From a virus, in IMG/VR virus record IMGVR_UViG_3300035182_002586, positions 427,585-491,584 of that record: a stretch of DNA of 64,000 nt; one strand, written 5' to 3'. Positions 5,609 to 42,544 of this stretch are shown here, piece by piece. A program made the translations under genes and the position numbers. The notes under the pieces are model-generated. The model did no database searches and was not told where the DNA came from. It was given only the letters and a program-made list of their open reading frames with translations. Position 1 is the first letter of the stretch; every line of letters starts with the position of its first letter.

Positions 5609-5659
5609 CCTCGCCTCCTGATGCTCTCGCGCCGTTCGCGTCGGTGTACTTCCTTGATC

Positions 5660-6262
5660 ATGACAACGAAGGAATCGCGGGACGACAGCTCCGCCGTACC
5701 GGGGTCCATCGAAGCTCGACTCTTGGATGCCGAAGCACGAGCCAAGGCCATCACCGAAGAGATCCGCGCACTTTACCGTGAGTCGCGAGCTGCGGCGGAG
5801 GCCGACAAGGCCAACGCAGACGACTACACAGCGGAGGTGCTGGAGAGGGGCTACCAGGTCGGCGCTCCTCAACCTCTCCCTACGCCGTGGGAGGTCCACC
5901 GCATTGAGGCGCCCGCTGGCCGACCCATCGAGGTCAACGAGCGTCGAGGCGGGAAGTTCGTCCGCGTTCGTCCGTGTGGACCCGAGTTCGCCGGCAAGAC
6001 GTACCTTGGGGTCTACCTTGGGGACATGGCCCTGTCCGTGGGGATCAACTTCCACACGGAGACCCGCACCGCCCACATCCGGTGGGGGTCGCACAACCCC
6101 GCCATCTTCGTGCCCGACCTCGGGCGCATCGTGCTAGGCGCCGAGTCGTGGTGGGGGCTGATCAAGTCGCCGGAGGACTTGCAGACGATCTCGGACCTCG
6201 ACATCCAGTCGGTCTGGTACGTCCGCGCACTTCAAGCACTCTCTCCGGACAAGAAAGAGTGA
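5660..6262 (+). CDS. hypothetical protein 200 aa
   Basis: ATG preceded by GGTGTACTTCCTTGATC variant; ORF-track frame. Confidence 0.6.
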   Translation: MTTKESRDDSSAVPGSIEARLLDAEARAKAITEEIRALYRESRAAAEADKANADDYTAEVLERGYQVGAPQPLPTPWEVHRIEAPAGRPIEVNERRGGKFVRVRPCGPEFAGKTYLGVYLGDMALSVGINFHTETRTAHIRWGSHNPAIFVPDLGRIVLGAESWWGLIKSPEDLQTISDLDIQSVWYVRALQALSPDKKE

Positions 6263-6435
6263 CGCGCAGGGTCATCATCGACAGCCGCATGCTCTGGACG
6301 GCCGGACGCCCAGCCCTGCTGAGGCTAGCGCGCTGGCTCAACGTTCCCTTCGACCCGTGCGAGTGCATGTGCTGCCACGCGTTGCTCGTAGAGAGCGTCC
6401 GAAAGCGGATGGACGAGAATGCAGCCAGTCTGTAG
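6259..6435 (+). CDS. hypothetical small Cys-containing protein 58 aa
   Basis: GTGA overlap with stop of previous gene; tail of 5974..6435 frame. Confidence 0.3.
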   Translation: MTRRVIIDSRMLWTAGRPALLRLARWLNVPFDPCECMCCHALLVESVRKRMDENAASL

Positions 6436-6911
6436 CGAGCAGGAAGAGGACGACTCGTTGGATGGGGTGTCCCTCTTCGAGGGGGAAACGCTCCGTATTT
6501 TGTGGCCCGACGGAACCCTAGAAGAACGGGACACCCACATCCGAGAAACCCCCACCAAGGGAAGGGGGGACCAGGTACAGGGCCTTCGTGGAGGAGGTTT
6601 TACGTGGCGTCACCGTCGAGGTCCCCTTGCATGGGGTCAAGGCGGAACGGGTTCACCCCCCGAAGTTCCGGGTTGGGGATGTGGTGCACACCATCAACAG
6701 CTCGGACCGCCTCGCTGGAAACACCCTCTGCATCACACAGATGGAGTGGGACGACCCGTGGAGGGTCGTTACCCGGCCCCTCTTCACCACGACGGGTTAC
6801 TTCGTGTCGCACTTCACGGAGGAGGAACTCCGCGAAGGGCCCGACCCTAGAGAGCCCACCCCCTTCGCGGTCATCGCGGAAGACGGGAAAGTTGCCTACC
6901 GGCAGCTCTAG
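6419..6911 (+). CDS. hypothetical protein with apparent +1 frame change (6419-~6570 in one frame, 6588-6911 in next); possibly pseudogene, slippage or sequencing error at G6 run
   Basis: both segments look coding; first frame becomes low-complexity after ~6570; G6 run at ~6564-6569. Confidence 0.35.
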
Positions 6912-6942
6912 CGTGTGACACCTACTTATGCGGGGGATTCAG

Positions 6943-7503
6943 ATGGAGGCTCCACCCATGTACAGGTACGACCACCGCACCGTCACCGCAGACCGCTCGA
7001 CGCAGGAAGGGCTAATGCGCCTGCACGACACGGTGCCGTACACGTATTTCCTGATGTCGAAGGACTTCACGGGGGTCCTGGACAAGCTCTCGCACCAGGC
7101 GCACTCGATCGCGGACCGCGCGGACGCCATCGCCGACGGGCGCAAGGGCGACACGGCGGACCTCTGCAACAAGATGCTGGACGTCCTCTCCAAGTCGATC
7201 GATCCCTTCCGCAAGTGGGGCCCGGCGCACGAACACGAGTGCGCAGCGATCCACGGGATCGACCGCATGAAGGACGTGTACCGCGAGATGATGAACCTCG
7301 GGCACGTCTACAAGAAGCTCGACCTGGTTCATCGCCAGGTCTACATGGCGGCCAAGGAGCCGCCCGCCAAGGCCGCAGAGGTGCTCGGCCAGGCGGCGAT
7401 CGAGGTCTCCACCGCGCACTCGATCCTCAAGCAGCTCCACCACGCCTGGAAGGCGTACCTGGCGATGCCCTTCGTCGACCCGGGCGGTTCCACGAACTTC
7501 TGA
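6943..7503 (+). CDS. hypothetical protein 186 aa
   Basis: ORF track; GGGGGA-6nt-ATG. Confidence 0.7.
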   Translation: MEAPPMYRYDHRTVTADRSTQEGLMRLHDTVPYTYFLMSKDFTGVLDKLSHQAHSIADRADAIADGRKGDTADLCNKMLDVLSKSIDPFRKWGPAHEHECAAIHGIDRMKDVYREMMNLGHVYKKLDLVHRQVYMAAKEPPAKAAEVLGQAAIEVSTAHSILKQLHHAWKAYLAMPFVDPGGSTNF

Positions 7504-7509
7504 GCAGAG

Positions 7510-7743
7510 CTAGACCGGATCCTCGTCAGCAATCCGCTCCCACAGCGTCTTGATCATCCCATCGGAGAGGTCGACGCGTGGGAGCAAGGGCTTCTCTCCG
7601 CCTTCGAGCTGCACGTAGTGGGCATCGAAGAGCCCGCCGACACGGCTCGTCACAACACCCGTCTGCCCTGCATGCTGGCCACCCGTGATGCGCACTCGCG
7701 TACCCACAGGAAAGCCCTCTGGTATCTCTCTGCCCGGCATCAT
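7510..7743 (-). CDS. small KOW-like protein 77 aa
   Basis: VGTRVRITGGQHAGQTGVV resembles KOW motif; GGTACACCGGAGG upstream. Confidence 0.5.
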   Translation of the reverse strand: MMPGREIPEGFPVGTRVRITGGQHAGQTGVVTSRVGGLFDAHYVQLEGGEKPLLPRVDLSDGMIKTLWERIADEDPV

Positions 7744-7798
7744 CGTCACTGCCTCCGGTGTACCCATACCACACACCAAGTAGATCCTCGGAGGCCAC

Positions 7799-8599
7799 GT
7801 GATCACGTCGTGTCTCGCTACTGCCGGGTATGCCGCCAAGTTGCCCGCGCTCAAGGACCGCACGTTCACGTTCGGTCCCGGCCTCATCATTCTCTTCGGG
7901 CAGAACGGCTCGGGGAAGTCGACGTTACTGTCCATTCTCGCGAGCTACTCGGGGTGCTGGGAAGCTGGATGGACAGCGTTCTCTTCCAACTATGTGGGCT
8001 TCAACGACGCCCCGTTCCCGCACAGGCTCGCTACCCGTGGGAACCAAGCAGAGGTCGCGTGGGACGGCACCCCGAGCTTCTACAGCACGGGGCCCGAGTC
8101 CGGGCAGTCGGGGTTCAACAACGCCCTCGAAGACGGTGGTGAGGACGCGGACAACTACCTCCGGAGCCTCCTGGCTCCTGGTTCGGCAGGCCAAGGCCAG
8201 ATCCAGTGGCTCAATCAGATGGAGAAGAAGCTCTCCGCGCCTCCGGATCTTCTCCGGGAAGACGGGACTCTACGCATACGTGGTCACGGTGAGGTCGAGA
8301 GGTCGAGCGTCAATAGCCTGTGGGGGGAGGCCATCGACGGCTTCCAGTCACACATCCGGTCGCTGCCCCACACGGGACCCGTGACGGTCCTTCTCGACGA
8401 ACCCGACGCACACATGTCGCTGCCGAACCAGCACACCCTCTGGACGAAGGCCATCCCGCGCCTCTCCGTTGGGCGACAGGTCATCGTCGCCACGCACAGC
8501 GCATTCGCCCTATGCGCCCCGGACGCGACCATCATCGACCTCCAGCCGGGGTACGAGGATCGGTGCCGGAAGGTTCTTCGGGCTCTTCGCGAAGTCTGA
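7799..8599 (+). CDS. SMC/ABC-type (AAA_21-like) ATPase 266 aa
   Basis: Walker A GQNGSGKST, signature-like SAGQGQ, Walker B VLLDEPDAHM, H-loop ATHS; GGAGG-5nt-GTG. Confidence 0.75.
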   Translation: MITSCLATAGYAAKLPALKDRTFTFGPGLIILFGQNGSGKSTLLSILASYSGCWEAGWTAFSSNYVGFNDAPFPHRLATRGNQAEVAWDGTPSFYSTGPESGQSGFNNALEDGGEDADNYLRSLLAPGSAGQGQIQWLNQMEKKLSAPPDLLREDGTLRIRGHGEVERSSVNSLWGEAIDGFQSHIRSLPHTGPVTVLLDEPDAHMSLPNQHTLWTKAIPRLSVGRQVIVATHSAFALCAPDATIIDLQPGYEDRCRKVLRALREV

Positions 8600-8633
8600 T
8601 GGATCGCTCCCCGCCTCGCATTGTAGGAGGGAC
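8597..8633 (+). promoter_or_regulatory. composite start motif; its TGA is the stop codon of the ATPase gene
   Basis: TGATGGATCG-N15-TTGTAGGAGGGAC-ATG. Confidence 0.7.
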
Positions 8634-8981
8634 ATGGACACCAACACCACCCCCGCCGCCCCCGCTCTCGTCCGCTACCCCACCGACGGCCACACGCGTC
8701 CGCTGACGGTCGAGGACATCACGGTCGGGCTCGTGACCCGTTACGTCATGTCCGACGGCGCGGTCGATCACTTCTCCGATTCCGTCATCACGAGCGTGGA
8801 GAAGAACGAGCACGGCCTGCTCTGCAAGATCGCTCGCCCCTACCTGCGGGTGACGCCGGACGGCACGCCGGTCGTGAGCTTCGAGAGTTACGAGGCGTAC
8901 GCGCACCGACTCATCGAGCGCCACGTCGTGGTGATGTACTCGACGGGCAAGCCCGTGATCAACCTCGCGACGGAGAGCTGA
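8634..8981 (+). CDS. hypothetical protein 115 aa
   Basis: full motif; ORF-track frame. Confidence 0.7.
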   Translation: MDTNTTPAAPALVRYPTDGHTRPLTVEDITVGLVTRYVMSDGAVDHFSDSVITSVEKNEHGLLCKIARPYLRVTPDGTPVVSFESYEAYAHRLIERHVVVMYSTGKPVINLATES

Positions 8982-8983
8982 AC

Positions 8984-9211
8984 ATGGCGAACACCCAAGT
9001 CGTTCGCGCACACCGCCTCGTCTTCGCGGTGCGTGACTGGAAGAACAACGGCGCCCTCGTCCCGCTTCGGACCCCGGGCCGCGAACCCTGGCCCGCTACG
9101 TGGGTCCGACGGGTCCCCGCCCTCTACGCGCTACACTCGGCCAACCAGTCGAGCCCCGGACGGTTCGCGCTGGTCACCCTGGACCTCGACAAACCCTACG
9201 CCGACGCATGA
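8984..9211 (+). CDS. hypothetical protein 75 aa
   Basis: ORF track; tight spacing. Confidence 0.5.
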   Translation: MANTQVVRAHRLVFAVRDWKNNGALVPLRTPGREPWPATWVRRVPALYALHSANQSSPGRFALVTLDLDKPYADA

Positions 9212-9212
9212 G

Positions 9213-9479
9213 ATGTCCTCTGCCCCTCCGCCCCCTCCAGTGTTCCACGCGATCTTCCCGGTCGCTGGAGCACTTCTCCAAGGGCATACCCTCCGTGTAA
9301 AGTCCCCTCCCTCCGAGGACGGGGGACCCTCAAAGGAAGTCGTGGCGGGGGAGGGCAAGGTCATCAACTGGTGCGGACAGATGATGCTCGAAGACGAAGA
9401 CGCCTTCGAAACAGCTTGGCTCTTCATCGCGCTCGTAGGAACCGACGCCGCACTCCAGTCCGTCGAGGATGCCACCTAG
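9213..9479 (+). CDS. hypothetical protein 88 aa
   Basis: ATG 2 nt after previous stop; C-terminal part of 9033..9479 frame. Confidence 0.5.
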   Translation: MSSAPPPPPVFHAIFPVAGALLQGHTLRVKSPPSEDGGPSKEVVAGEGKVINWCGQMMLEDEDAFETAWLFIALVGTDAALQSVEDAT

Positions 9480-9793
9480 TGAGGAGGCAGCGCGCGCCAA
9501 AGCACGACGACGCGCTTCATCACGTAGCCGGGGACAACACGGTCGGCCAGCACCACATCGGCCCCGTGCTCGAACAGATCGATCCAAGACTCGAACGCAA
9601 TCGCCATGCGCCCCAAGTCGTGGCGTATCTCGTCCGCGTTCGCCGCAGTCATGACTTCCATCAGCTTGGCGAACAGCTCGGCGCGCAACAACACCCCGTG
9701 CTCATACGCCTCGAAGAGCTGCTTGGGTGTTCGTGTTTCCGCCACGACTGGGGGTTCGTAGAAGATGATCCTTGACCCCTGCTGCTGAGCCAT
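9476..9793 (-). CDS. hypothetical protein 105 aa
   Basis: internal ATG with GGGGCGTAGG-ATG; upstream gene stop TAG lies inside this element. Confidence 0.55.
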   Translation of the reverse strand: MAQQQGSRIIFYEPPVVAETRTPKQLFEAYEHGVLLRAELFAKLMEVMTAANADEIRHDLGRMAIAFESWIDLFEHGADVVLADRVVPGYVMKRVVVLWRALPPH

Positions 9794-9794
9794 C

Positions 9795-10421
9795 CTACGC
9801 CCCGACCCTCTCAAACAGACGACCCCCAACTTGAGGGGCGCGCGCACGCAGCCGATCATCCGCAGTCAGCCACGTGTGGTTCGCCATCCGATAGAACTCG
9901 TTGGGGTTCGTTTCCAAGAGTAGCTTCTGCGCCAACATGTGATCTGGAGTCGGCACGTAGTCCCTAATGTGGACACAATAACGCGCCACGTCGATACCAT
10001 CTTCCACGAGTACGACGTTCATGGCAGAGCCACGCTCGATACGGAAGGTCCGTCCATCGGGGGCCCGAACGTGGAAGACGTTCTCCGCTGCGAGCTGCCG
10101 GCGGGCCTCTTCGTCAAGCAGGGCATCGAGGAGCCTCTCCGCCCGCGCCGTCGCTTGCCCCCACAGCTCTTCGCGGACTGCACGATCACGAGCCCGCAGT
10201 GCCTCGAAGTCCCGTCGTATGCCCTCGGGGAGCTGCCGGAAATGGAACAGGTCGATGGTCCACGCCCGCTCTTGGTCTCCACAGCCACAGGTGAACCCGA
10301 ACCGCCGAGCGAACGCGAAGTCTTCCGTCCGACACCCCTCGTGAACGTGGTGCTCTCGGATTGCCTCTACCCACTCCCGTAGCGCCGGACGGAGTGCAGC
10401 CACACCAGGATCGTCGAACAT
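9795..10421 (-). CDS. hypothetical protein 208 aa
   Basis: ORF track; divergent from 10457 gene across palindromic TACACCacGGTGTA. Confidence 0.6.
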   Translation of the reverse strand: MFDDPGVAALRPALREWVEAIREHHVHEGCRTEDFAFARRFGFTCGCGDQERAWTIDLFHFRQLPEGIRRDFEALRARDRAVREELWGQATARAERLLDALLDEEARRQLAAENVFHVRAPDGRTFRIERGSAMNVVLVEDGIDVARYCVHIRDYVPTPDHMLAQKLLLETNPNEFYRMANHTWLTADDRLRARAPQVGGRLFERVGA

Positions 10422-10456
10422 CGCGAGGAGATCTACACCACGGTGTAGGATGGAAC

Positions 10457-11302
10457 ATGACCCGTCTTGCTTGGGCCACCGACACGCATCTCGACCGCAT
10501 GAACATGAAGCGGTTCCCGAGAGAGTTCGGCGCCAAGATCGCTGCGGACACCTCGGCGGAAGTCCTGCTCATCACCGGGGACATTGCCGAAGCGTCCACC
10601 TTCTCGAAGGCGCTCATCGGCGTCTCGGAAGGGTTTGGGGGGCCCGTCTACTTCGTCCTCGGCAACCACGACGTGTGGGGGCAGAGCTTCGTGGACGCGC
10701 ACCACAAGGCCGCGCGTCTGACGAGGAAGTACGAACGACTCACCTGGCTCACGGATGCAGGGGTCACCCTCCTGTCCGAGACGACCGCCCTCGTGGGGTT
10801 CGACGGTTGGTACGACGCCAAGTGGGGTCCCACCAACCCCCCGAAGACACGCATGGGGGACTGGTCCAGGATCAAGGACTTCCAGCGCACTTGGAACCTG
10901 ATGGCCATGACCTTCGAGGCGAGGGTCGACTTGATCATCCATCAGTGCCAGGAGAGGTGCGGCCTCATCGTGCAGTGGATCGAGAGGGACCTCCGGGCCG
11001 CGCTTGCCGTGCGGCCAAAGGTGGTGGTCGCCACGCACGTGCCGCCCTACCCGCAGAACGCCATCGAGCACATCGAGGGCAGGTCCGAAGAGGAAGACCG
11101 GTCCTGGCTCCCCTGGTACACGAACAAGGCGCTCGGGGACATGCTCCTGCGGGTCGCGGACGAGCACCCGGACCGGGAGATCCTCGTGCTCTGCGGACAT
11201 GCACACGCCGAGCACAACCACGAGGTTCTACCCAACCTGCGCGTCCGAACGGGGAAGGCCACGTACGGCGCGCCCTCGCTCGCCGGGGTGCTCGATTTGT
11301 GA
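10457..11302 (+). CDS. calcineurin-like metallophosphoesterase
   Basis: motifs DTHLD, GDIAE, GNHD, ATHVPP, CGHAH; GGTGTAGGATGGAAC-ATG. Confidence 0.8.
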   Translation: MTRLAWATDTHLDRMNMKRFPREFGAKIAADTSAEVLLITGDIAEASTFSKALIGVSEGFGGPVYFVLGNHDVWGQSFVDAHHKAARLTRKYERLTWLTDAGVTLLSETTALVGFDGWYDAKWGPTNPPKTRMGDWSRIKDFQRTWNLMAMTFEARVDLIIHQCQERCGLIVQWIERDLRAALAVRPKVVVATHVPPYPQNAIEHIEGRSEEEDRSWLPWYTNKALGDMLLRVADEHPDREILVLCGHAHAEHNHEVLPNLRVRTGKATYGAPSLAGVLDL

Positions 11303-17822: not shown

Positions 17823-17843
17823 GGGGGGCGAGCGTACACCTGA

Positions 17844-21195: not shown

Positions 21196-21211
21196 CGGTG
21201 TACATGAGGAC

Positions 21212-23675: not shown

Positions 23676-23717
23676 CTCAGCGCTGCCGGTACACCGCGTC
23701 TGGTGTACCCCAGAGGT
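23676..23717. promoter_or_regulatory. palindromic GGTACACC-6-GGTGTACC shared by divergent starts 23675(-) and 23718(+)
   Basis: seen directly. Confidence 0.55.
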
Positions 23718-25258: not shown

Positions 25259-25289
25259 CGCTTCGGGCCCCGGTGTACGCGGACTGCCC

Positions 25290-28528: not shown

Positions 28529-29011
28529 ATGATGCCCCGGCTGACGGAGAACGTCGCCCACCCCCTCTCCACGTTCAAGCGCTGCCAGCTCTGTGGCTTC
28601 GAGGGTCACCGGGACATCTGCGAGTTCCGCATGTGGGTCGAGTGCGACGAACAGGACAAGCCCGAGCCGGGCAACGTTCTGGTCGTCTGCCGTGGGGAAG
28701 CGTGCCGGAAGGCCATCAGCGACCACCCACGGCTCTACATCGAGGTACCGTGGGGCGAGGGCCTCCCCGGGCACTTCATGCTCCTGTGCGGCGACTGTGC
28801 CTTCCGGAAAGGGGTTGGCTGCACGCACCCCGACCTCAAGTCGAACGGGGGCGCCGGGTTGAAGGTCAGCATCGGCGGGCCCTTCTCAAACGTCCGGGTG
28901 TGCTTCTCGGACGGGACCTCCAGCACGGGGCCGCACCCGGCTGTCGAATGCATCGGGCAGACGGCGATCCCGCCGCCCTCCGTGTGGGAGCGCCTCGGGG
29001 AAGACCTCTAA
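28529..29011 (+). CDS. Cys/His-rich protein 160 aa
   Basis: GGTGTAGGGTAGAAGC-ATG; divergent partner of 28489 via CTACACC-7-GGTGTAG. Confidence 0.65.
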   Translation: MMPRLTENVAHPLSTFKRCQLCGFEGHRDICEFRMWVECDEQDKPEPGNVLVVCRGEACRKAISDHPRLYIEVPWGEGLPGHFMLLCGDCAFRKGVGCTHPDLKSNGGAGLKVSIGGPFSNVRVCFSDGTSSTGPHPAVECIGQTAIPPPSVWERLGEDL

Positions 29012-29013
29012 AA

Positions 29014-29436
29014 CTACGGAAGAAACTCGAACGGAAGAGAGTCCAGGAACAGGACTGTCCCTCGTGAGGCTTCGTGTCGAACGAAGGTATCGACCCCGAA
29101 GAAGGCTCCCACATAACCTCTTGGCCCCGGGCTGAGTCCCTGACCGAGGGCTGCGAACTGAGCCACCCCGTTAAGCGCGTGGAGGATGTCGGCGAAGTCG
29201 GCCGGGTGGATGACCATGGCCCGCACCGTGCGGTTCTGCCTCTGCGTCTCTGCGAGAAGCTCCCGGACGCGTTCGGCGGTTAGAGGGCCGAACCTCCGGT
29301 CCAGGTGGCCTGGGAGCGTCTGCTCTTCGAGCACGGGGACCGGAGGCTTCGGTGGTGGCGGAAGCTCTGGCTCTTCTTCCCCCGGCTCAAGGGGATCGTC
29401 GAGGAGGAGCCTCTCGTACGAGTTGAGTCGAGCCAT
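29014..29436 (-). CDS. hypothetical protein 140 aa
   Basis: GGTGTACCGGGGGAACCGCG-ATG. Confidence 0.65.
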   Translation of the reverse strand: MARLNSYERLLLDDPLEPGEEEPELPPPPKPPVPVLEEQTLPGHLDRRFGPLTAERVRELLAETQRQNRTVRAMVIHPADFADILHALNGVAQFAALGQGLSPGPRGYVGAFFGVDTFVRHEASRGTVLFLDSLPFEFLP

Positions 29437-29493
29437 CGCGGTTCCCCCGGTACACCGATGGATCGATCCCGGTCACGTGCGGTAGTAGAGACA

Positions 29494-29637
29494 TGGACAA
29501 CCACTCGTACCGACGGGCTTTCAAGGCATACCGCCGCGCAAACTTCATCGTCGAGGGACCGTTTGAGAAACGCCAGGCCAACCGGGCTTCCCGTAGGCTC
29601 TCGCGGGTTCTGGTGCGCCTGTGAGCGTCTTCATCAA
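29494..29637 (+). CDS. small basic protein ~47 aa
   Basis: full motif CGATGGATCGATCC-N-GGTAGTAGAGAC-ATG. Confidence 0.35.
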
Positions 29638-29969
29638 CAGCGTGTGGGTCAAAGAGGGCGAGTGCGTGGACTGGCCCTTGAACGTGCCCGTGAAGCTCGT
29701 CGACGGCTCGACCGCTACGGCGCGGGAGCACCGGAAGACCAAGCAGGCACAGATCGCGGGTACAGTGGGACGGCCGCAACCGCAAGGTCACGAAGGTCCC
29801 GGACTTCGGAACGAGCTTCACGGGCACCGCGATGGCCTCGAAGGGGTGGGAGCCCCGCTGGTACATGGTCGGCAAAGCGGCATTCGCGCGCTCGACGGTC
29901 GACGGTAAGTTCTTCCCGTGTACGCACCGCCCCAAGGTCGCCCCCGGTTTCGTGATGGATCCCGCCTGA
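29621..29969 (+). CDS. hypothetical protein with apparent +1 frame change near ~29755 (or two overlapping small genes)
   Basis: 5' part MSVFINSVWVKEGEC.. coding-like; 3' part ..KVTKVPDFGTSF..FFPCTHRPKVAPGFVMDPA coding-like in next frame and ends just after the downstream TGATGGATC element. Confidence 0.3.
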
Positions 29970-29988
29970 CCCACGTTGTAGAGGAAAC

Positions 29989-30288
29989 ATGACCACCACC
30001 AAGACCCTCCGCAAACCGACCGTCCACCTGAACGGCACGAGCCCCGACGCCCTCTTCGAGCAGCTCGCCAACGTGAACGGCGCGATCCGCAAGGCGATCA
30101 GCACCCTGCAAGAAGCTGCCCCCCACGGACGGGACTACTACCCGCAAGGGGACAACGCGATCAACGAGGCCACGAAGGAACACCTGGACCGCATCGCGCG
30201 TCTTCGGTCCGTGATGTCCGAGATCGAGGAGCTGGCCGAGCACGTGGCCGACGCGCGTGACGCGCGAGCGGCTCGGAAAGCCCGCTGA
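29989..30288 (+). CDS. hypothetical protein 99 aa
   Basis: full motif GTGATGGATCC-N-GTTGTAGAGGAAAC-ATG. Confidence 0.7.
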   Translation: MTTTKTLRKPTVHLNGTSPDALFEQLANVNGAIRKAISTLQEAAPHGRDYYPQGDNAINEATKEHLDRIARLRSVMSEIEELAEHVADARDARAARKAR

Positions 30289-30306
30289 CGCACAGCGTAA
30301 GAACGT

Positions 30307-30345
30307 GGCCACAGGTTCTCCCGAACCTGTGGCCTTTCGGCTATT
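30307..30345 (+). terminator. rho-independent terminator GGCCACAGGTT-ctcccg-AACCTGTGGCC + TTTCGGCTATTT
   Basis: perfect 11-bp stem, 6-nt loop, T-rich tail, 19 nt after stop. Confidence 0.65.
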
Positions 30346-30472
30346 TACCGCATCCTTTTCGCGGTCGAAATCAGGCTTCGGCTCCGTGACCTGGTGTACG
30401 GGATAGGGACAACCTACCTCTGGAACTCGGTGTTGGCCGAGACCCCCAAGACACGAAAGGAGTCGGACAGGC

Positions 30473-30775
30473 ATGGCAGCCGAAACGATGTCAATGAAGG
30501 TCCTCGCGGCGCTGAACGAGGGGGCCAAGACCCTCGCAGACGTCACAGAGAAGACGGGGATCCCTCGGCCCAAGACCTACGCAACGCTCCACCAGCTCCT
30601 CAAGGAAGGCAAGGCCACCAGAACCGGGCCGCGCGGATGGGAACGAGGCCGATGGGCACCCTCCGCAGCGGCGACCTCAGAAGAAGCGACCCCCTCAGAG
30701 GAGACGATCGAGGAACCGAAGTCAGGGATTCGCACTCGAAGCACGATGCGCTCCGCCACCCGCCTCGCCGGCTGA
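30473..30775 (+). CDS. winged-helix DNA-binding regulator 100 aa
   Basis: conventional SD AAAGGAG; MKVLAALNEGAKTLADVTEKTGIPRPKTYATLHQLLKEGKA wHTH pattern. Confidence 0.7.
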   Translation: MAAETMSMKVLAALNEGAKTLADVTEKTGIPRPKTYATLHQLLKEGKATRTGPRGWERGRWAPSAAATSEEATPSEETIEEPKSGIRTRSTMRSATRLAG

Positions 30776-30790
30776 CACCGCAGAACGACG

Positions 30791-30826
30791 AAAGGCTCCC
30801 GACCCCGCGATGGGGTGGGAGCCTTT
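30791..30826. terminator. bidirectional nested hairpin AAAGGCTCCC-loop16-GGGAGCCTTT between convergent regulator and flotillin genes
   Basis: perfect 10-bp stem; loop has inner ACCCC/GGGGT stem. Confidence 0.6.
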
Positions 30827-30844
30827 CGCACGTCCGGGGGTCGA

Positions 30845-32899
30845 CTACGAGGCGCCGTTGGTCGGCGTCGCCGGGGTCTTCTTGCCGACCTCGGCGCGGA
30901 TCTGGTTCCGCAGTGCCTCGGTCTCCGGGCTCCGCTTGGGGGCCGCCGAGAGCACCGTGTCAGCCGCGAACTTGTCCGACATCACCATCGTCAGCAGAGT
31001 CTCCAGGATGCCCGAGCCCTGGCCGTTCTGACTCCCGACGACGATGCGAGGCACCACATCGACCTTCGACTCACGGATGGCGTTCGAGAAGCCCTCCATG
31101 ACCTGCTGAGTGAGCTGGAACTTCGGACCACCGTAGGCAGCCACCTGCTCCTCGATCGCCACGGCCTGCGCGATACCGACGCGTGCAGCCCGGTCCGCCT
31201 CGGCTTCGGCGAGGTAGCGAACCTTGTCCGCTTCGGCGCGCGCCATCGCGCGAACCTTGTCGGCCTCCGCTTCTGCCATCGCACGGATCTGCGAGGCCGT
31301 CTGAATCGACCGCTGGTACTGCGCCTTGCCCTCGTTCTCCTGCGTCCGGATGGAGATCTCGGACTCGGTGAGCTGCTGCTGAGCCCTCGAAACCGCCTCG
31401 GCCTCGCGAAGCGCGCGTTCCTTCTCCGCAGCCTTCTGCTGGCGGTCGTAGGTGCCGATCTGCTCTTCGGCGATCTGACGCGAGCGGAGCTGCGTCAGGA
31501 TGGTGCCGATCTGCTTGTCGTTGTCGTCCGGCGACGGCGTGCCGATGAGGACCTCTTCCAGCTCCAGGTTGTACTGCGCGAACTTGGCCTTCATCCCCAC
31601 GGCCGACTCGCTCTGGATCTCGCTGCGCTCCTGAATGAGCTGGATCAGCGTCCGGGTCTGCGCCACGTTCTTGAAGTACGCGCTGACCATCGGGTCGAGC
31701 GTCTGGTTCACGAGGCGCTGGATGTCACCGAAGCGCTGGACAACGAGCGGCGCCTTGCGGTAGTCGATGTGCACGACAACCGAGAGCGGCAGCCAGGGCT
31801 CGAACGCGTCCTTGGTGATGAGCCCGACCTCGCAGAGGTTCTCGTCGAACTTGTGAGCAGACACTTCCGTCTCTTCCCACTTGAGGATGAAGTTCGTGGT
31901 CGGGACCGTGACGATCTTCCCGGCGTACGTGTTGAACGCGTACTTGCCCGGCATCAGAGCCTCGTCCCACACGCCGCGCTGACCCTTGCGAACCAGCTCC
32001 CCGTGCGAGTAGTCCGACCCCGAGAGGTCCGCGCCCGCCTCGCCCGTGTAGGAGACTACGACGCCGACCGTGCCGACCTCGATGACCGTCTTGGGGATCA
32101 GCTCGACCGTCGCGAAGAGCCGGTTGATGTAGTAGGTCCCGTCGACGAGCACCTGCATCTGGCGCCCACGACGGCCGCCCGCAGCCAGGAAGAGCAGAGG
32201 GTCCTGGAAGTTGTTGTGGTAGGAGGGCTTCTCCGGATCCTCTCCGACGAGCGGGGCGATCACGTCCCCGTGGGAGAGACCCGGGCCGTCGTGCACGGTC
32301 ACGACCCCGATCTTGTCGTCCGTGCCCCGGATCACGATCGGCTTGAAGCCATCACGCTCCCGGATGATGGTCGACATCTTCTCCAGCTCGTGCTTGTCAT
32401 TCGACAGGCTCAGCCCATACACCTCGTCCTCGGTGAAGACCGCGAAGAGGGCCGGGTTGATGGCGTACGTCCCCTCACGGAGGATCGTCATCTGCGGGCC
32501 CCGCTGACCTCCCCCTGCGAGGAACGCCCGAGCATCCCCGTAATTGGCGCACCCCACCACGCATCCTGCGAGGGTCTGCGTCGCTTCGAGCTGCTTGCCG
32601 TCGCGCGCGAAGACGTAGCCGATCTTGCCCTGCGGCACGGTGACCAGCGGCGCCTTGTGGACGCGGTACTGAATCGGCGTGAGCCAGTGGATGCCGCCAC
32701 GGAGCATGTCGGGCTGGTAGCCCGCCTCGCCCCCGAGGGCCATGAAGCCGCTCTTGACGGAGCCCTTGCGTGACCACCGTTTCTCAACGACGGCCACGCG
32801 ATTGTTCGGGATGACTCGTACCCCTGAGAGGAGCACAAAGAAGACGAGGAGGCCCAAGGCCACCTCGATGAGGAATGCCGGTTCGGGCAGGTGGTGCAT
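30845..32899 (-). CDS. flotillin / SPFH (band 7) family membrane protein 684 aa
   Basis: N-terminal TM, SPFH core (RVIPNNRVAVVEKRWS..PIQYRVHKAPL), long EA-repeat coiled coil (AEAEADKVRAMARAEADKVRYLAEAEADRAA); GGTGTACCACCGCGCC-ATG. Confidence 0.85.
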   Translation of the reverse strand: MHHLPEPAFLIEVALGLLVFFVLLSGVRVIPNNRVAVVEKRWSRKGSVKSGFMALGGEAGYQPDMLRGGIHWLTPIQYRVHKAPLVTVPQGKIGYVFARDGKQLEATQTLAGCVVGCANYGDARAFLAGGGQRGPQMTILREGTYAINPALFAVFTEDEVYGLSLSNDKHELEKMSTIIRERDGFKPIVIRGTDDKIGVVTVHDGPGLSHGDVIAPLVGEDPEKPSYHNNFQDPLLFLAAGGRRGRQMQVLVDGTYYINRLFATVELIPKTVIEVGTVGVVVSYTGEAGADLSGSDYSHGELVRKGQRGVWDEALMPGKYAFNTYAGKIVTVPTTNFILKWEETEVSAHKFDENLCEVGLITKDAFEPWLPLSVVVHIDYRKAPLVVQRFGDIQRLVNQTLDPMVSAYFKNVAQTRTLIQLIQERSEIQSESAVGMKAKFAQYNLELEEVLIGTPSPDDNDKQIGTILTQLRSRQIAEEQIGTYDRQQKAAEKERALREAEAVSRAQQQLTESEISIRTQENEGKAQYQRSIQTASQIRAMAEAEADKVRAMARAEADKVRYLAEAEADRAARVGIAQAVAIEEQVAAYGGPKFQLTQQVMEGFSNAIRESKVDVVPRIVVGSQNGQGSGILETLLTMVMSDKFAADTVLSAAPKRSPETEALRNQIRAEVGKKTPATPTNGAS

Positions 32900-32937
32900 G
32901 GGCGCGGTGGTACACCGAGTCCACCCCGAACGAGGCC

Positions 32938-34047
32938 CTACTTTCCCTTGCCGAGGAACTCCTTGATCGAGGGGAGGATCGCATCGCGGTCTGCGATCTG
33001 GCTCAGGGTCACCCGATCGTCGTCGGGGAATGCCGTTCGGAGGTCCTTGTAGAACTGCCCCGACCCGTACGGAGAATCGACCTGTCCGTACGAGAACACG
33101 TTCACGACGGGCAGGAGGCGATCGCGCAGGACCTTGATGCAATCCTCCGTGTCCTCAGTCGACCAGTTGTCCCCGTCGGAGAAGTGGAAAGGGTAGATGT
33201 TCCACGAAGATGAGGGGTAGTCCTTGTCGATGATCTTCATGCACAGGTCCAGAGCCGACGAGATCCTCGTCCCTCCAGACTCGCGCGTGTGGAAGAACGT
33301 GTGCCGGTCGACCTCGCGCGCCTCTGCGTCGTGGGTGATGAACCGGGTCTCGATGCCCTTGTACTGACGTCGGAGCCAGAGGTCGATCCAGAAGGACTCC
33401 AGGCGGACGATCTCTTTCTGGTCGTCGCCCATCGAGCCCGACACGTCCATCATGTAGATGACGACGGCCTGCGCCTGCGGCTTGAGGGTGATGTCCGGCG
33501 CGCGGTAGCGCCAGTCGTCTCGCACGGGCATGAGCACGGGCTGGTCGGGGTTGTAGTCCCCCGACGAGATGGCGCGCTTGAGCGTCTCCTTGTAGCTGCG
33601 CTTCATGTGGCGCAGCGACCCGGGCCCCACTCTGGAGATCCCCGTGTACTTGTTCGAGTCCTGGATGATGTTCTCTTTGCCCTTGTTCTCGATCTTCGGG
33701 AGTTGGAGTTCGTCTCCGAGCATGTCGGCGAGTTCATCCATGGAGATGTCCGCCTCGATCCCGTGCTTGTCCGTGTCCTTGCCGGCCTTCTTGCCCTTGC
33801 CCTTCTGGTCCGGGTCGCCGCCCACGGGATCGCCTACGTCCCCATCCCCCTGTCCTGCGCCCCCCGCCTGCTTGTCACCGTAGACGAAGCGCGGCATGTC
33901 GATCTGAGGGATCGGCACGGACACGACATCCTTGCCGACGCGGCCGAGAAGCTCCCCCGAAGAGATGTACTTCGAGAGGTTCCCGCGCACCTTCTTGCGG
34001 ATGATGTCCTTGAACCTCGAATGGTCTGCGCCGATGCGATTCGACAT
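32938..34047 (-). CDS. DUF444 / YeaH-YhbH family protein with VWA domain 369 aa
   Basis: VVIYMMDVSGSMGDDQK..GGTRISSALDL..IYPFHFSDGDNWS; GGTGTACCGGGAGGCTCC-ATG. Confidence 0.8.
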   Translation of the reverse strand: MSNRIGADHSRFKDIIRKKVRGNLSKYISSGELLGRVGKDVVSVPIPQIDMPRFVYGDKQAGGAGQGDGDVGDPVGGDPDQKGKGKKAGKDTDKHGIEADISMDELADMLGDELQLPKIENKGKENIIQDSNKYTGISRVGPGSLRHMKRSYKETLKRAISSGDYNPDQPVLMPVRDDWRYRAPDITLKPQAQAVVIYMMDVSGSMGDDQKEIVRLESFWIDLWLRRQYKGIETRFITHDAEAREVDRHTFFHTRESGGTRISSALDLCMKIIDKDYPSSSWNIYPFHFSDGDNWSTEDTEDCIKVLRDRLLPVVNVFSYGQVDSPYGSGQFYKDLRTAFPDDDRVTLSQIADRDAILPSIKEFLGKGK

Positions 34048-34085
34048 GGAGCCTCCCGGTACACCGGACGGTGTAGCTTAGCGCA

Positions 34086-34502
34086 ATGGCCGACGAAGAA
34101 GCCAAGGTCGACGTCGTGATCGCCACGCGCCTGTGGAAGCTCTATAACCTCGTGTGGACGGGCAATCTCTACGAGAAGGCCCGAGCGAACACGCTCCAGA
34201 AGTACCCCGCAGTCCACGAGTTCGTCCCCGAAGACAAGCGCACGAACCTCCCGGACGCCTGGGACCTCGGACGGGTCCGGCACTTCTACGAGCTGCTGCG
34301 CGCGGGCAAGTCCATCGACCCCATCGACGTGGACAACGAGTGCCACAACGGGTTCATCTACCCCGTCCCCATCGTCCTCGATGGCCACCACCGGCTCGTT
34401 GCGGCCGCCCTCGCAAGGGCCCGCATCCCCGTGCACTACGGTGGCCGGATTGACCTTCTCGACTACCTCACGGGCAAGCGACGGACGGCCCCGACGGCCT
34501 AG
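34086..34502 (+). CDS. ParB/Srx-like nuclease domain protein
   Basis: IDPIDVDNE..PIVLDGHHRLVAAALA. Confidence 0.55.
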   Translation: MADEEAKVDVVIATRLWKLYNLVWTGNLYEKARANTLQKYPAVHEFVPEDKRTNLPDAWDLGRVRHFYELLRAGKSIDPIDVDNECHNGFIYPVPIVLDGHHRLVAAALARARIPVHYGGRIDLLDYLTGKRRTAPTA

Positions 34503-34505
34503 CCG

Positions 34506-34838
34506 TCAGCTCGCTCCGCGCTGCTGCATGTACCCAAGCCCGTAGCTTGGGGTGGAGAGCGCAGCCTCGCCACGCTCCTCGAAGGGTCGGGGGTCGATCG
34601 CCAGACCCTTCGAGGTCAGAAGCTCGCAGTACGTCCGGATCTGCTCCCACGAGACGTGGATCCCCATCTCCCTGAAGTCCCTCGACCGAGCCACAATCAG
34701 GCCGTGGTTCCAGTCCGTGGTGACGAAGAAGACCTCGCCTGGTCGGAGCCACGTACGTCCCGTGTCGAAGGACCGGAGCACGCGCAGGGTGTCGATGGGT
34801 TGGAGGCGCTCGATCCCGTGGCCACGTCGTTTGGACAT
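34506..34838 (-). CDS. hypothetical protein 110 aa
   Basis: GGTGTACATGTGGAC-ATG. Confidence 0.55.
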   Translation of the reverse strand: MSKRRGHGIERLQPIDTLRVLRSFDTGRTWLRPGEVFFVTTDWNHGLIVARSRDFREMGIHVSWEQIRTYCELLTSKGLAIDPRPFEERGEAALSTPSYGLGYMQQRGAS

Positions 34839-34855
34839 GTCCACATGTACACCGG

Positions 34856-35515
34856 TCAACGCTTGGAGCGGTCGTACTCCCCGGCCAGGTGCTTCTTGAG
34901 GGTCTCCCCCAGAGCGCGCTCCAAGAGCCCTACGAGGTCCAGCTCCCGTTCGTAGGTGACCTCCCATGCGTAGGTCGCGCCCCCACCGAAACCCTCCACG
35001 ATCCGAGACTTGTGGGCTCGACACCCCGTACCAAGACCTTTCGCCAACAGCTCGTTGGCGTCCGGAGCCTCGTGCCACTCCGACTCGGCCTCCTCGTGGG
35101 ACTGCGCCCATCCGTAGCAGAGGCGAAAGCGCATCTCCAGCTTGTTCCCCTTCGCCGAAGCCTGCACGTACTCGACCGAGGGGCTCGTGGACTCGTGGTT
35201 CACAGCCGTCAGAGCGGCCTCGATGGCCTCGTCCAGCTTCGGAGAGTACAGCACCGGGTGCAGAGCCTCCCCCGTTGCCTCGTGCATGGTCTTGACGATC
35301 TCGTGGTACGCATGCGCCACGTAGGCTTCACGCGTCATCGCCTCCGGGGCGTCGGTGGCGTCGAGGTAGGTGGTACACCGGAGTACCTCCGTGACCATCC
35401 GGGTCGTCTCGTGCGGCTGGATCGCCTTGAAGGCGTTCAGGAAGAACTTGGGGTAGGTGGCCGCCACGATTGCCCGTTGGTTGTACTGGTAGGACATCTC
35501 ACACCAGGGTTTCAT
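34856..35515 (-). CDS. hypothetical protein 219 aa
   Basis: GGTGTACTTCTTCT-ATG. Confidence 0.6.
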   Translation of the reverse strand: MKPWCEMSYQYNQRAIVAATYPKFFLNAFKAIQPHETTRMVTEVLRCTTYLDATDAPEAMTREAYVAHAYHEIVKTMHEATGEALHPVLYSPKLDEAIEAALTAVNHESTSPSVEYVQASAKGNKLEMRFRLCYGWAQSHEEAESEWHEAPDANELLAKGLGTGCRAHKSRIVEGFGGGATYAWEVTYERELDLVGLLERALGETLKKHLAGEYDRSKR

Positions 35516-35561
35516 AGAAGAAGTACACCAGCGCGCTTTTTCCTTCTAGGCTTCCAAGGGT

Positions 35562-35969
35562 ATGGCCCTCCGCACGGTCGGAGATCCCCGGTCCGAAGTC
35601 GTGGTCCTTGGACCCCAAGGACGCATCGTGGGCCATATTTTCGTCGACCTCAGCCTCTACGGCATCGACGACCCCGTTCTCGATGACCAGGACCTACGAC
35701 CCTTCATCATCAACTGCCTCGACGGGATCATCCTCGTCGCCCACCGGCAGGTCGACCGCAAGTCGCGGTTCCTCGAACTCGGGCCCATGGATCTAGAGCA
35801 CGAGCCGGTTCTGCGCGAAGCCTTCGAGATGCCCGCCGCGCACATGTACACGAGCGACTACATCAGGCACACGCAAGCGGTGAACAACACCGAAGTCTTG
35901 CGGATCAAGGGGTTGGCCGGAGCCCATTTCGGACGACGGGCCCGTGCATCCAGTGGTCTCCCGAACTGA
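35562..35969 (+). CDS. hypothetical protein 135 aa
   Basis: ORF track; 3' end overlaps convergent RNA ligase gene. Confidence 0.4.
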   Translation: MALRTVGDPRSEVVVLGPQGRIVGHIFVDLSLYGIDDPVLDDQDLRPFIINCLDGIILVAHRQVDRKSRFLELGPMDLEHEPVLREAFEMPAAHMYTSDYIRHTQAVNNTEVLRIKGLAGAHFGRRARASSGLPN

Positions 35970-36567
35970 CGTGATCCTTTCGGACCCACTTTCCAACCGC
36001 GCGTGAGAACTCGCCCTCTCCGAAGCCGCAGGCCCACCGAACGACGACGCCCTCCCTCTCCCCACCGCAGGCTGACGGCTGCACCGCGAAGCGCTCAACG
36101 ATGGCCTGGAGGTCCTGCGCTCGGGGTGCTGGAGCGGGCTGTGCGAGAACCGGGACTGTCGGTAGCCCGAGGGACGCCGCACACTCCTCGACCTCGGCCC
36201 ACGAGTGCCAACGGAGTGTCTGCGCGTTGCGTACTCCGAAGACGGTCAGGTAGGCGGGCAGCGCCGTGTAGGCGATCGAGTGCTTCGCCCAGAGCCACTC
36301 CCCGAACACCTGGAGGTTGTCGGGGATGCTGTCGCGCAACGACGCCCACAGAGCCTTGAAGGCGTCGAAGCTCGGGTGCGACGGCGGCTTCCCGTGGCTG
36401 CGCGCAAAACACCCCTCCCGTTCGAGGCTCACGTTGCTGCCGTCGAGCTTCTCGGTGAAGACGAGGGGCACCTTGAGGAGCGAACCGACGCTCTTCATGC
36501 GCTTGTCGTCGCTCTCGCCTCCAGGGGAGAACGGGAAGTGGGAGGTGCGGGGGTACTTGAGGCTCAT
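35905..36567 (-). CDS. ATP-dependent RNA ligase (Rnl/RNA_ligase family)
   Basis: N-term KYPRTSHFPFS and nucleotidyltransferase motif I TEKLDGSN. Confidence 0.7.
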   Translation of the reverse strand: MSLKYPRTSHFPFSPGGESDDKRMKSVGSLLKVPLVFTEKLDGSNVSLEREGCFARSHGKPPSHPSFDAFKALWASLRDSIPDNLQVFGEWLWAKHSIAYTALPAYLTVFGVRNAQTLRWHSWAEVEECAASLGLPTVPVLAQPAPAPRAQDLQAIVERFAVQPSACGGEREGVVVRWACGFGEGEFSRAVGKWVRKDHVSSGDHWMHGPVVRNGLRPTP

Positions 36568-40965: not shown

Positions 40966-41517
40966 TCACTTCCTGGAGTCGTGTGCGGCCACAACTTTGC
41001 GGCATAGAGCCACGAACTCCTCGTCAGACATGTCGTGCTTCGCAGTGTTGACCTCCAACAGAACCCATCGGAGGTTACCCCTTACGGAAAGGCCGCCTTT
41101 AGACCGCGGTACTATGTGATCCAGGCTAGCGTTGACCCCTGGAATAAGCGGCTCACCTGTCACCGCACACAGCCCACACTGTTCATCCCAGATAGACTGT
41201 AGAAGGGCCGTACCACCGTTCTTAGTTTGGAGCCCATATGGATTCCCGATGCCCTGGAACCAGTGGTACAGACAGAGAATGTTCGTCACCGCCTTCTGCT
41301 TACAGCGAATGCACCACCCGTTCGCCAGTCGCGCCCCTTTCCAAGACTTGATGTACGTCCTGTACTGTTCTCGTTGTTCACTGGTCAGAGGTTTTCGAGT
41401 GGTGCGGCGGCACTCCTTACAGGGCATTCTCGGCCGCCCACTCGTCATCGAGTAGAAGTCTTTTCGAGGTTTGGGGAGCGAGCAGTCCCGGCACCGGATC
41501 AGTTCTACGTCTGACAT
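40966..41517 (-). CDS. HNH endonuclease
   Basis: CGLCAVTG..ASLDHIVPRSKGG..NLRWVLLEVNTAKHD; markedly lower GC. Confidence 0.8.
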   Translation of the reverse strand: MSDVELIRCRDCSLPKPRKDFYSMTSGRPRMPCKECRRTTRKPLTSEQREQYRTYIKSWKGARLANGWCIRCKQKAVTNILCLYHWFQGIGNPYGLQTKNGGTALLQSIWDEQCGLCAVTGEPLIPGVNASLDHIVPRSKGGLSVRGNLRWVLLEVNTAKHDMSDEEFVALCRKVVAAHDSRK

Positions 41518-41533
41518 TTGCTACCTAAGAGCT

Positions 41534-42544
41534 ATGACACACCTCGACAAGATCGGCTTCTACACCCTGCAAGACGAACGCGCCCGCACGTGTAGCACCA
41601 CGTCCCCCATGACACGGGCGTGCTTCATGATCACCGGGCGTTGTAACTTCCGTTGCGTTTATTGCAACGGCTCGGTGTGCGACCGGGACTTCACCGTCGA
41701 GCAGGTTGGCGCGCTGCTCACGGACCTAGCCAACCACCAGATCCAGGCGGTCCGCTTCACGGGCGGGGAGCCGACCTTGCACCGTGACCTGCTCACGATG
41801 GTTCGGACCGCGCGCGACCTCGGGATCCCGAAGATCGCCGTCTCGACGAACGGGGCCGCACGCCCCGAGCTGTACCGCGAGCTGGTCGAGGCCGGGGTCA
41901 ACGACTTCTCGATCTCGGCCGACTGCCAAGACCTGGAGCTGGCCGCGAAGCTCTCGGGCCGCCCGGGGACGTGGGACCGGGTGAAAGAGAACATCCGGAT
42001 GCTCTCGAAGCTCACCTACGTGATCATCGGGACCACCATCACGGAAGAGAACCTCGCGCAGATCCCGGAGACACTGGCGTTTCTCGGAGCCCTTGGGGTG
42101 GCCGACATCAAGCTGGCGACGGCGACACAGCTCAGGAGGGATATCCCCCTCGACATTCTCGACAAGATCTCGCCCGAGCTGCTCGAACGGATGCCCGTCC
42201 TACGCTACCGGATCGAGCACTACAAGGCCGGGAGACCGGTTCGGGGGCTCGTCGAGGGTCGGGACAGCCACCACTGCTGGTGGGTCCAGGACGACATCGT
42301 GCTGACCCCCGATGGCCACTACCCGTGCATCGTGTACCCCCGGGAGAAGGGGACGCCGATCGGACCCCTCGCGTCCGTGGCGGAGATGCGGGAAGCCCGC
42401 CTCGCGTGGGCGCGCAGCCGGGACACCCACGAGGATCCCATCTGCGTGCCCTACTGCATGGACATCTTCGCCGACTGCAACAAGCGGATCGAGGACCTCC
42501 AGGGGCTCGTCCCGGCTTCCAGGCTGAGGCGAACCACGGCCTGA
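41534..42544 (+). CDS. radical SAM protein, MoaA-like with C-terminal twitch-like Cys region
   Basis: CNFRCVYC, GGEPTL, VSTNGA; C-term HHCWW..DGHYPCIV..ICVPYC..DC; start 17 nt from divergent HNH start. Confidence 0.8.
   Translation: MTHLDKIGFYTLQDERARTCSTTSPMTRACFMITGRCNFRCVYCNGSVCDRDFTVEQVGALLTDLANHQIQAVRFTGGEPTLHRDLLTMVRTARDLGIPKIAVSTNGAARPELYRELVEAGVNDFSISADCQDLELAAKLSGRPGTWDRVKENIRMLSKLTYVIIGTTITEENLAQIPETLAFLGALGVADIKLATATQLRRDIPLDILDKISPELLERMPVLRYRIEHYKAGRPVRGLVEGRDSHHCWWVQDDIVLTPDGHYPCIVYPREKGTPIGPLASVAEMREARLAWARSRDTHEDPICVPYCMDIFADCNKRIEDLQGLVPASRLRRTTA

Follow-up and report, generated by a model that had tools for sequence, protein, structure and literature searches.

Adjacent DUF444/YeaH and flotillin genes in a putative accessory region of a huge-phage-like element

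We analysed a stretch of 64,000 nucleotides from the IMG/VR virus record IMGVR_UViG_3300035182_002586 (positions 427,585 to 491,584 of the record; hereafter the window, to which all coordinates refer), in which two genes with close bacterial relatives lie in tandem on the minus strand. The upstream gene (32938–34047) encodes a DUF444/YeaH/YhbH-family protein of 369 residues and the downstream gene (30845–32899) a YqiK/flotillin-family SPFH membrane protein of 684 residues. Proteins identical to both are on record from a 620,031-bp contig of the Joint Genome Institute (JGI), and the region looks, as far as sequence can tell, like an accessory part of a 620-kb element resembling a huge phage. 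PrkA and SpoVR, between which YeaH is encoded in bacteria, were found neither in the 64-kb window nor on the related contigs L096, L001 and L095 (tblastn, E 1e-5 or better).

The DUF444 protein is a complete member of its family. It matches DUF444 (PF04285) with an E-value of 2.1e-85 (287.8 bits against a cut-off of 27) and NF003711 with 587.4 bits against a cut-off of 388, the latter match spanning residues 2–369 of 369. These profile searches, above curated cut-offs, bear out the assignment proposed in an earlier examination of the letters without database searches (the sequence-only reading). The C-terminal half of the protein holds a VWA domain with an intact metal ion-dependent adhesion site (MIDAS; D201-x-S203-x-S205, T260 and D291). 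These five residues do not vary in an alignment of 34 sequences, and the window protein retains every position that is invariant in the family. In the AlphaFold2 model most of the VWA region reaches a predicted local distance difference test score (pLDDT) of ~83–94, and a Foldseek search with this model returns VWA domains (E 1e-7, probability 1.00). A sequence search of solved structures gave no match for the DUF444 protein.

The closest homologues of the DUF444 protein are encoded on ORFan-rich contigs (81% identity in L001/L002, 76% in L096 and 75% in L095), after which identity drops to a plateau of ~65% with cellular proteins, whose named sources are Polyangiales, Polyangiaceae, Sorangiineae and Myxococcales. 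By neighbour joining, the window protein falls into one clade with P0002–P0005 and P0033; the sister of this clade is a cellular group in which Polyangiaceae/Myxococcales are the named members. The copies on ORFan-rich contigs share substitutions, and the ratio of nonsynonymous to synonymous substitution rates (dN/dS) among the phage-like copies is 0.19–0.30. L103 and L104, two viral contigs, have DUF444 proteins that make up a clade of their own in the same tree, and on this sequence evidence the two contigs acquired DUF444 independently of the window clade. P0033 is encoded on a contig of 659,467 bp in ENA; its DUF444 is 63% identical to that of the window and carries the signature residues of the window clade, and this contig may be a second huge element with an orphan-type YeaH. 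On L095 the DUF444 gene is followed, in place of flotillin, by a gene for a 635-residue protein with a weak VWA_2 match and then by GIY-YIG and LAGLIDADG homing-endonuclease genes (2663–4570, 4574–5476 and 7331–8290 of that contig). For finding such loci, alignment-based scans of IMG/VR worked better than single-protein pattern scans, which gave 0 DUF444 loci and 1 flotillin locus.

The flotillin-family protein has the expected parts in an unusual arrangement. A Band_7/SPFH match (PF01145; E-value 1.5e-16, 61.4 bits against a cut-off of 23.6) covers residues 272–494 and upholds the SPFH assignment of the sequence-only reading. The protein begins with a hydrophobic stretch, AFLIEVALGLLVFFVLLSGV, modelled as a transmembrane helix at residues 7–25 with a block-mean pLDDT of 89–92 over residues 11–30. 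Towards the C-terminus a continuous modelled helix spans residues 462–588 and is rich in Glu and Ala, with the repeat AEAEAD at 542 and 564 and ARAEAD in between; the long EA-repeat region described earlier is therefore real, and the coiled coil itself is putative. Between the anchor and the Pfam SPFH match lie ~245 residues, whereas canonical FloT and flotillin-1/2 have the SPFH domain directly after the anchor. This extension contains two internal repeats (residues ~90–148 and ~194–259; hhalign 98%, E 1.7e-13), and by eye there may be a third repeat-like stretch at the start of the SPFH match. The N-terminal 271 residues searched alone have no Pfam match, and we discarded a second SPFH domain as an explanation of the extension (hhalign probability 4–8%). 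The flotillin has no sequence match to any solved structure.

As for DUF444, the closest homologues of the flotillin lie on ORFan-rich contigs, with 81% identity in L096 and 72–74% in L009, L010/L011 and L097/L098, and cellular homologues reach ~65%. The family is 58–66% identical across Polyangiaceae, Anaerolineales, Acidobacteriota, Phycisphaerales and Clostridium, and it also occurs, at 45–55% identity, in viral contigs of 176–436 kb (L012, L211–L215). Among the phage-like flotillin copies dN/dS is 0.05–0.23; a tree was built for DUF444 only. At the L097/L098 locus (74% identity) the flotillin gene lies near genes for DUF2201 (VWA-like/metallopeptidase), an AAA_5 MoxR-like ATPase and an ADP-ribosylglycohydrolase (2594–4108, 6848–8005 and 8950–9891). 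On the contigs L003–L005, from Myxococcales metagenome-assembled genomes (MAGs), the flotillin gene (8001–10109) comes ~360 bp after a Bat-like operon (1–7642) that encodes DUF58, BatD and two VWA proteins; this VWA neighbourhood is unrelated to DUF444.

Neither gene keeps the company in the window that it keeps in cells. We compared 80 metagenomic loci with close DUF444 relatives and 80 GTDB genome loci with flotillin. Where the flank was long enough, PrkA lies directly upstream of cellular DUF444 at 68 of 69 loci and SpoVR directly downstream at 71 of 71. An exception to the order of the trio is seen in L007/L008 (Myxococcales, 6114–10727), where DUF444 and SpoVR are preceded by a subtilase (Peptidase_S8) instead of PrkA. 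No flotillin gene lies within 10 kb of cellular DUF444 at any of the 80 loci, and no DUF444, PrkA or SpoVR gene lies within 8 kb of cellular flotillin at any of the other 80. The sequence-only reading had called a YeaH homologue paired with flotillin, and not with PrkA and SpoVR, an unusual combination, and these counts agree with it; by the same counts the pair is not a bacterial operon.

The pairing recurs on L096, a contig of 6.3 kb that is syntenic with 30.8–36.6 kb of the window. The shared block comprises an RNA ligase (70% identity), three small ORFs (52–64%), DUF444 (76%) and flotillin (81%). A gene for a 138-residue protein that is divergent to DUF444 (34086–34502, +), has no Pfam match and is 52% identical in L096 belongs, by sequence comparison, to this block. 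In L096 the spacer between DUF444 and flotillin is ~44 nt and each gene has its own start motif. At the remaining phage-like loci the two genes occur apart: flotillin is absent beside DUF444 in L001/L002, L095, L103 and L104/L105, and DUF444 is absent beside flotillin in L009, L010/L011, L097/L098, L012 and L211–L215. The window was compared with related loci by ORF-based tblastn, since tblastx was swamped by high-GC noise and, when filtered, showed only the two genes themselves. Among the sequences compared, the adjacency is confined to one syntenic branch made up of the window and L096, and because the synteny with L096 takes in the whole surrounding block, shared ancestry would be enough to explain it. 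In the window, the 38 nt from the DUF444 stop to the flotillin start hold no hairpin (z −0.66), and co-transcription of the two genes is possible, each with a start motif of its own.

This start motif, GGTGTAC, is a property of the whole window. It occurs 29 times against 4.2 expected (~7-fold), a number reached in 0 of 100 shuffles. An automated scan finds the start codon of an ORF of at least 50 residues that is GC-rich at third codon positions (GC3-rich) within 30 nt downstream of 20 of the 29 copies, and for ~14 of these 20 the spacing between motif and start codon is 7–13 nt. Examples stand at 17834–17840 (−), 21197–21203 (+), 25272–25278 (+), 32910–32916 (−), 34059–34065 (−) and 62645–62651 (−). 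The density of the motif is 0.45 per kb in the window and 0–0.17 per kb in the cellular loci checked. The copy at 32910–32916 lies 10 nt upstream of the flotillin ATG, an arrangement repeated in L096. In the 38-nt divergent intergenic region on the other side of DUF444, two motifs stand back to back at 34059–34076: GGTGTAC on the minus strand, 11 nt before the DUF444 ATG, and GGTGTAG on the plus strand for the gene at 34086–34502. GGTGTAC is kept before DUF444 in L096, L001 and L095 and before flotillin in L096, and lower-GC relatives (L009, L010, L097) have TGTA[AC] at the same distance. Both genes thus appear to be wired into the element's own expression signals, because each bears its own GGTGTAC start motif. 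The motif could work in transcription, as a promoter or initiator element, or else at the RNA level. We judged a variant of the Shine-Dalgarno sequence unlikely, given the spacing of 7–13 nt to the ATG and the presence, in some genes, of a separate GGAG in between. A similar back-to-back pair lies between divergent genes at 23689–23708, where it forms a small inverted repeat that could be mistaken for a hairpin terminator.

The sequence-only reading had joined the pair with a winged-helix gene into an insulated module bracketed by three strong hairpin terminators, and this picture holds in part. Two of the three hairpins are well supported. The first, at 30307–30334 (+), is GC-rich with a perfect 12-bp stem and a 4-nt loop (folding free energy, dG, −25.2; z −5.78). 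It starts 19 nt past the stop codon of the upstream gene at 29989–30288 and, given this position, is probably the terminator of that gene. In a custom scan it is the longest among only five distinct perfect hairpins of at least 9 bp in the window; the built-in inverted-repeat scan of the whole window, which the custom scan replaced, gave mostly palindromes. The second, a long imperfect hairpin at 30789–30828 that folds on both strands (dG −35.2 on the plus and −41.7 on the minus strand; z −4.2 and −6.6), separates the stop codons of two converging genes, winged-helix (30775) and flotillin (30845), and is probably a bidirectional terminator. Neither of these hairpins is followed by a T-tract, the tails reading CTTTCGGC and CACGTCC, and for this reason the canonical terminator scan missed both; canonical promoter and terminator scanning gave nothing useful. 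A stable GC-rich stem-loop directly after a stop codon is thus present at 30307–30334 and at 30789–30828 and lacking at 34059–34076. The third terminator, proposed at the latter position, was rejected: it has a dG of −11.6 and a z of −0.06 against shuffled sequence, and it lies between divergent start codons, where the sequence consists of the two start motifs. No Rfam family was found in 29000–36000.

The winged-helix gene itself (30473–30775, +) encodes a protein of 100 residues with a helix-turn-helix (HTH) in residues 5–50 and a low-complexity C-terminal half. Over residues 8–50 the protein gives marginal matches to HTH_IclR (6e-6, 26.4 bits against a cut-off of 22) and TrmB (7e-6, 26.2 bits against 25.6), and no domain match, such as a C-terminal effector-binding domain, was found in the low-complexity residues 51–100. 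The conventional Shine-Dalgarno-like sequence AAAGGAG reported earlier for this gene is indeed present, at 30456–30462 (+), 10 nt before the ATG. The gene had also been credited with an upstream element, GGTGTACGGGATAGGGAC. The GGTGTAC part of this element exists (30393–30399, +), as a copy of the window-wide motif and not as a feature specific to the winged-helix gene, and its distance of 74 nt from the ATG is atypically long. GC3 is 0.75, compared with 0.86–0.89 in the neighbours, and the codon composition is weaker; the gene calls in this region are confirmed by a second assembly of the same element. Only one relative of the protein was found among 5.8 billion proteins. L096 ends before the position that would correspond to the winged-helix gene. 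We find nothing that ties this gene to the pair: it is a separate convergent unit, most simply an unrelated and separately terminated small regulator, and the proposed three-gene module does not stand.

The nature of the element bears on all of this. The GC content is even along the window (0.61–0.67), and only about 6 of 59 candidate ORFs have a Pfam match. The matched genes encode an RNA ligase (1.4e-29), a radical SAM protein (2.6e-24), a sigma-70 region 4 protein (1.5e-17), a metallophosphoesterase and an AAA_21/ABC-type ATPase; these accessory genes lie at 35905–36567 (−), 41456–42544 (+) and 10295–11302 (+) and in one further ORF. Several ORFs match PHROG families of unknown function, and for two large proteins the matches are to hypothetical proteins from cultured phages of large and jumbo size, the best phage match of a window protein being 43% identity over 98% of the length to Erythrobacter phage vB_EliS-L02. 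A 650-residue protein (2793–4745, +) without a Pfam or PHROG match aligns along almost all of its length, at 42–43% identity, with hypothetical proteins from this phage and from Mesorhizobium phage Cp1R7A-A1. No tRNA gene was found in the 64-kb window, and a megablast search of the region against a phage collection gave no match. Taken together, a huge phage appears to be the likeliest source of the window.

Both types of gene have counterparts in known systems, with differences. The window DUF444 resembles the YeaH of the bacterial prkA(yeaG)–yeaH(yhbH)–spoVR(ycgB) operon in being full-length, with the VWA fold, an invariant MIDAS and ~65% identity to proteins of Polyangiaceae/Myxococcales, but it differs in the absence of PrkA and SpoVR from the 64 kb, in its ORFan-rich context and in its phage-type start motif. 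Large phages are also known to encode DUF444 (PHROG families 19072 and 10856), but there PrkA adjoins DUF444, usually together with SpoVR, and the DUF444 proteins are only 29–36% identical to that of the window. Thermus phage MN1 has DUF444, SpoVR and PrkA in a row and the phiYS40 group also has the set; in the Ralstonia jumbo phage RsoM2USA, SpoVR and PrkA flank the DUF444 match (PMC8504454); and of two huge phages, LR756511.1 has the full trio and LR756502.1 PrkA with DUF444. A lone DUF444/YhbH with neither PrkA nor SpoVR nearby occurs in the Bacillus-infecting Bastillevirinae (Bcp1, Deep Blue, Thurquoise) and in the IMG/VR contigs L103–L105. However, only the VWA half of the Bacillus phage proteins matches, at 32–35% identity, and no flotillin is adjacent in the Bacillus phages or in L103–L105. 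The YhbH-like gene of Bcp1 has been noted as a likely modifier of adaptive behaviour of the host (PMC4056285).

Similarly, the window flotillin shares with bacterial flotillins/YqiK (COG2268) and with SPFH cages such as HflK/C–FtsH the N-terminal anchor, the SPFH/Band_7 domain and the long EA-rich C-terminal helix. It belongs to a bacterial family of ~700 residues that is widespread and bears the JGI label YqiK, and it differs from these proteins in the two-repeat extension of ~245 residues between anchor and SPFH domain. SPFH/Band-7 membrane proteins are also encoded by phages (Vibrio phages 207E48.1 and 1.244.A, phrog_200, and the Schitoviridae phage GIB1), but these are ~22% identical to the window protein or are small lipoproteins, whereas the window encodes a near-cellular long flotillin. 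The flotillin of LR756502.1 is 32% identical to it. The role of SPFH proteins in phages has been called unclear (PMC13239085). The view that neither gene is expected in a phage was therefore mistaken for both: host-derived stress and membrane genes of either kind are already known in large phages.

The explanation we favour, at slightly better than even, is that the element has kept two host-derived auxiliary genes independently of each other, and that their adjacency is specific to one lineage and not the sign of an obligate two-gene system. Both genes are, to judge by their sequences, functional and retained, because dN/dS is 0.05–0.30, the MIDAS and the invariant residues are kept and the VWA domain is modelled confidently. 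Several observations weigh against this explanation. There is no phage hallmark gene (capsid, terminase or tail) in the 64-kb window, which makes the evidence for phage identity indirect, and only about one tenth of the contig is visible, so that PrkA or SpoVR encoded elsewhere could make the YeaH protein a non-orphan. The AlphaFold2 monomer model of the flotillin is poor (pLDDT 55), and the Foldseek hits obtained with this poor model (stomatin, HflK/C, flotillin and major vault protein) are all weaker than E 0.001 and suggestive only. We infer an action on host dormancy signalling from the biology of the family. Finally, the adjacency in L096 is conserved, with a short spacer, across 76–81% protein identity and a synonymous divergence (dS) of ~0.65, and a functional pair would look alike. 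Such a functional cassette is the natural alternative. In it the VWA/MIDAS protein would dock on, or be organised by, a flotillin cage at the membrane; one purpose might be to draw a host AAA+ protein, PrkA for instance, into a membrane microdomain. The two genes would be expressed jointly. They do lie on the same strand, 38 nt apart and with no hairpin between them, the tandem is kept in the diverged L096 with its ~44-nt spacer, and the huge phage LR756502.1 carries both gene types, though 67 kb apart. In Myxococcales MAGs the flotillin gene closely follows a Bat-like operon that includes DUF58 and two VWA proteins, and the L097 flotillin has a VWA-like DUF2201 gene and an AAA_5 gene no more than 6 kb away. 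We nevertheless consider a cassette unlikely: the RNA ligase and three small ORFs are syntenic in L096 too, the pairing is seen at 0 of 80 cellular DUF444 and 0 of 80 cellular flotillin loci, other phage-like loci have one gene without the other, and each gene has a separate start motif. A bolder version, to which we give little credence, would make the orphan YeaH and the long flotillin a phage-specific membrane device, in which the cage-held MIDAS protein captures or mis-activates the host PrkA AAA+ kinase/protease and so switches off the starvation-induced or developmental dormancy of a myxobacterium-like host during replication of the 620-kb phage. If true, such a device would be a new viral control of bacterial dormancy.

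The remaining alternatives concern the origin and the use of the region. It might not be viral at all, and derive instead from a megaplasmid, another large extrachromosomal element or a mis-assembled cellular contig, with both genes serving the host-like physiology of the replicon. The lack of capsid, terminase, tail and tRNA genes within the 64 kb would fit this, as would a uniform GC content of 0.61–0.67, similar to that of the putative donor clade, and exact peptide patterns did not retrieve the contig from IMG/VR. It is made improbable by the ~90% of ORFs without a Pfam match, the short genes densely packed on both strands, the matches of several ORFs to PHROG families and to proteins from large phages in culture, and a start motif ~10 nt before the ATGs that other ORFan-rich contigs share and that is uncommon in the cellular loci checked (0–0.17 per kb, against 0.45 in the window). 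That the pair, alone or together with the winged-helix gene, forms a system for anti-phage defence, superinfection exclusion or counter-defence appears very unlikely to us. Phage-encoded membrane proteins can exclude superinfecting phages, and the part of this large mobile element in which the pair is found is accessory and variable. The winged-helix protein also has weak PADLOC matches to the HTHs of CRISPR-associated regulators (CARF3--CARF, 1.4e-5; Csa3, 8.7e-4), but these cover only the generic HTH part. PADLOC-DB 2.0 gave no match for flotillin, DUF444 or four neighbouring proteins, the cellular homologues belong to housekeeping or stress operons and not to defence islands, and the three genes encode no nuclease, NTPase, toxin or sensor domain; the defence role proposed in the sequence-only reading thus finds no footing. 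That both genes are recently captured passenger DNA without a role for the element, as their cellular origin and ~65% identity to bacterial proteins could suggest, seems to us highly improbable. The phage-like copies have dN/dS of 0.05–0.30 at a dS of ~0.6 or more, the MIDAS and all family-invariant DUF444 residues are retained, the DUF444 copies of ORFan-rich contigs form a clade of their own with shared substitutions, and the cellular upstream signals have been replaced by the start motif of the element.

If the two genes are indeed auxiliary genes kept independently, the biology of their families suggests how each might act. YeaG, YeaH and YcgB have a cofitness above 0.7 in six bacteria and act like a single pathway (bioRxiv 10.1101/072470). 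Deletion mutants of yeaG or yeaH have a shorter lag following sustained nitrogen starvation, and a yeaG mutant stays more metabolically active (PMC4664914). An orphan YeaH with an intact MIDAS would most probably plug into, or compete in, the PrkA(YeaG)–YeaH–SpoVR(YcgB) starvation/dormancy pathway of the host, and in the absence of its own partners it might titrate or mis-activate host PrkA. We are less confident of this specific action on PrkA than of the auxiliary-gene explanation as a whole. The outcome would be that the infected cell is kept metabolically active, or that its quiescence is re-timed, during a long infection; a phage that needs an active host would have a plausible interest in the starvation switch. 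The flotillin, for its part, would most probably build SPFH cages attached to the membrane, which would organise or stabilise the membrane of the host, membrane-bound proteases or phage membrane proteins.

Phages are known to bear genes of host origin through which they influence the physiology of the host. Sporulation-pathway genes (PrkA, YhbH and SpoVR) and SPFH genes have previously been noted in phages without explanation. The flotillin pairing has the appearance of lineage-specific synteny and does not define a new system. The most useful aspect of the locus is rather a clade of full-length, MIDAS-intact YeaH proteins without PrkA and SpoVR partners, under purifying selection on ORFan-rich contigs that are probably those of huge phages. 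If the orphan YeaH acts on the PrkA pathway of the host, it could provide a natural tool for uncovering the function of YeaH, whose operon, yeaGH, has been linked to starvation survival.

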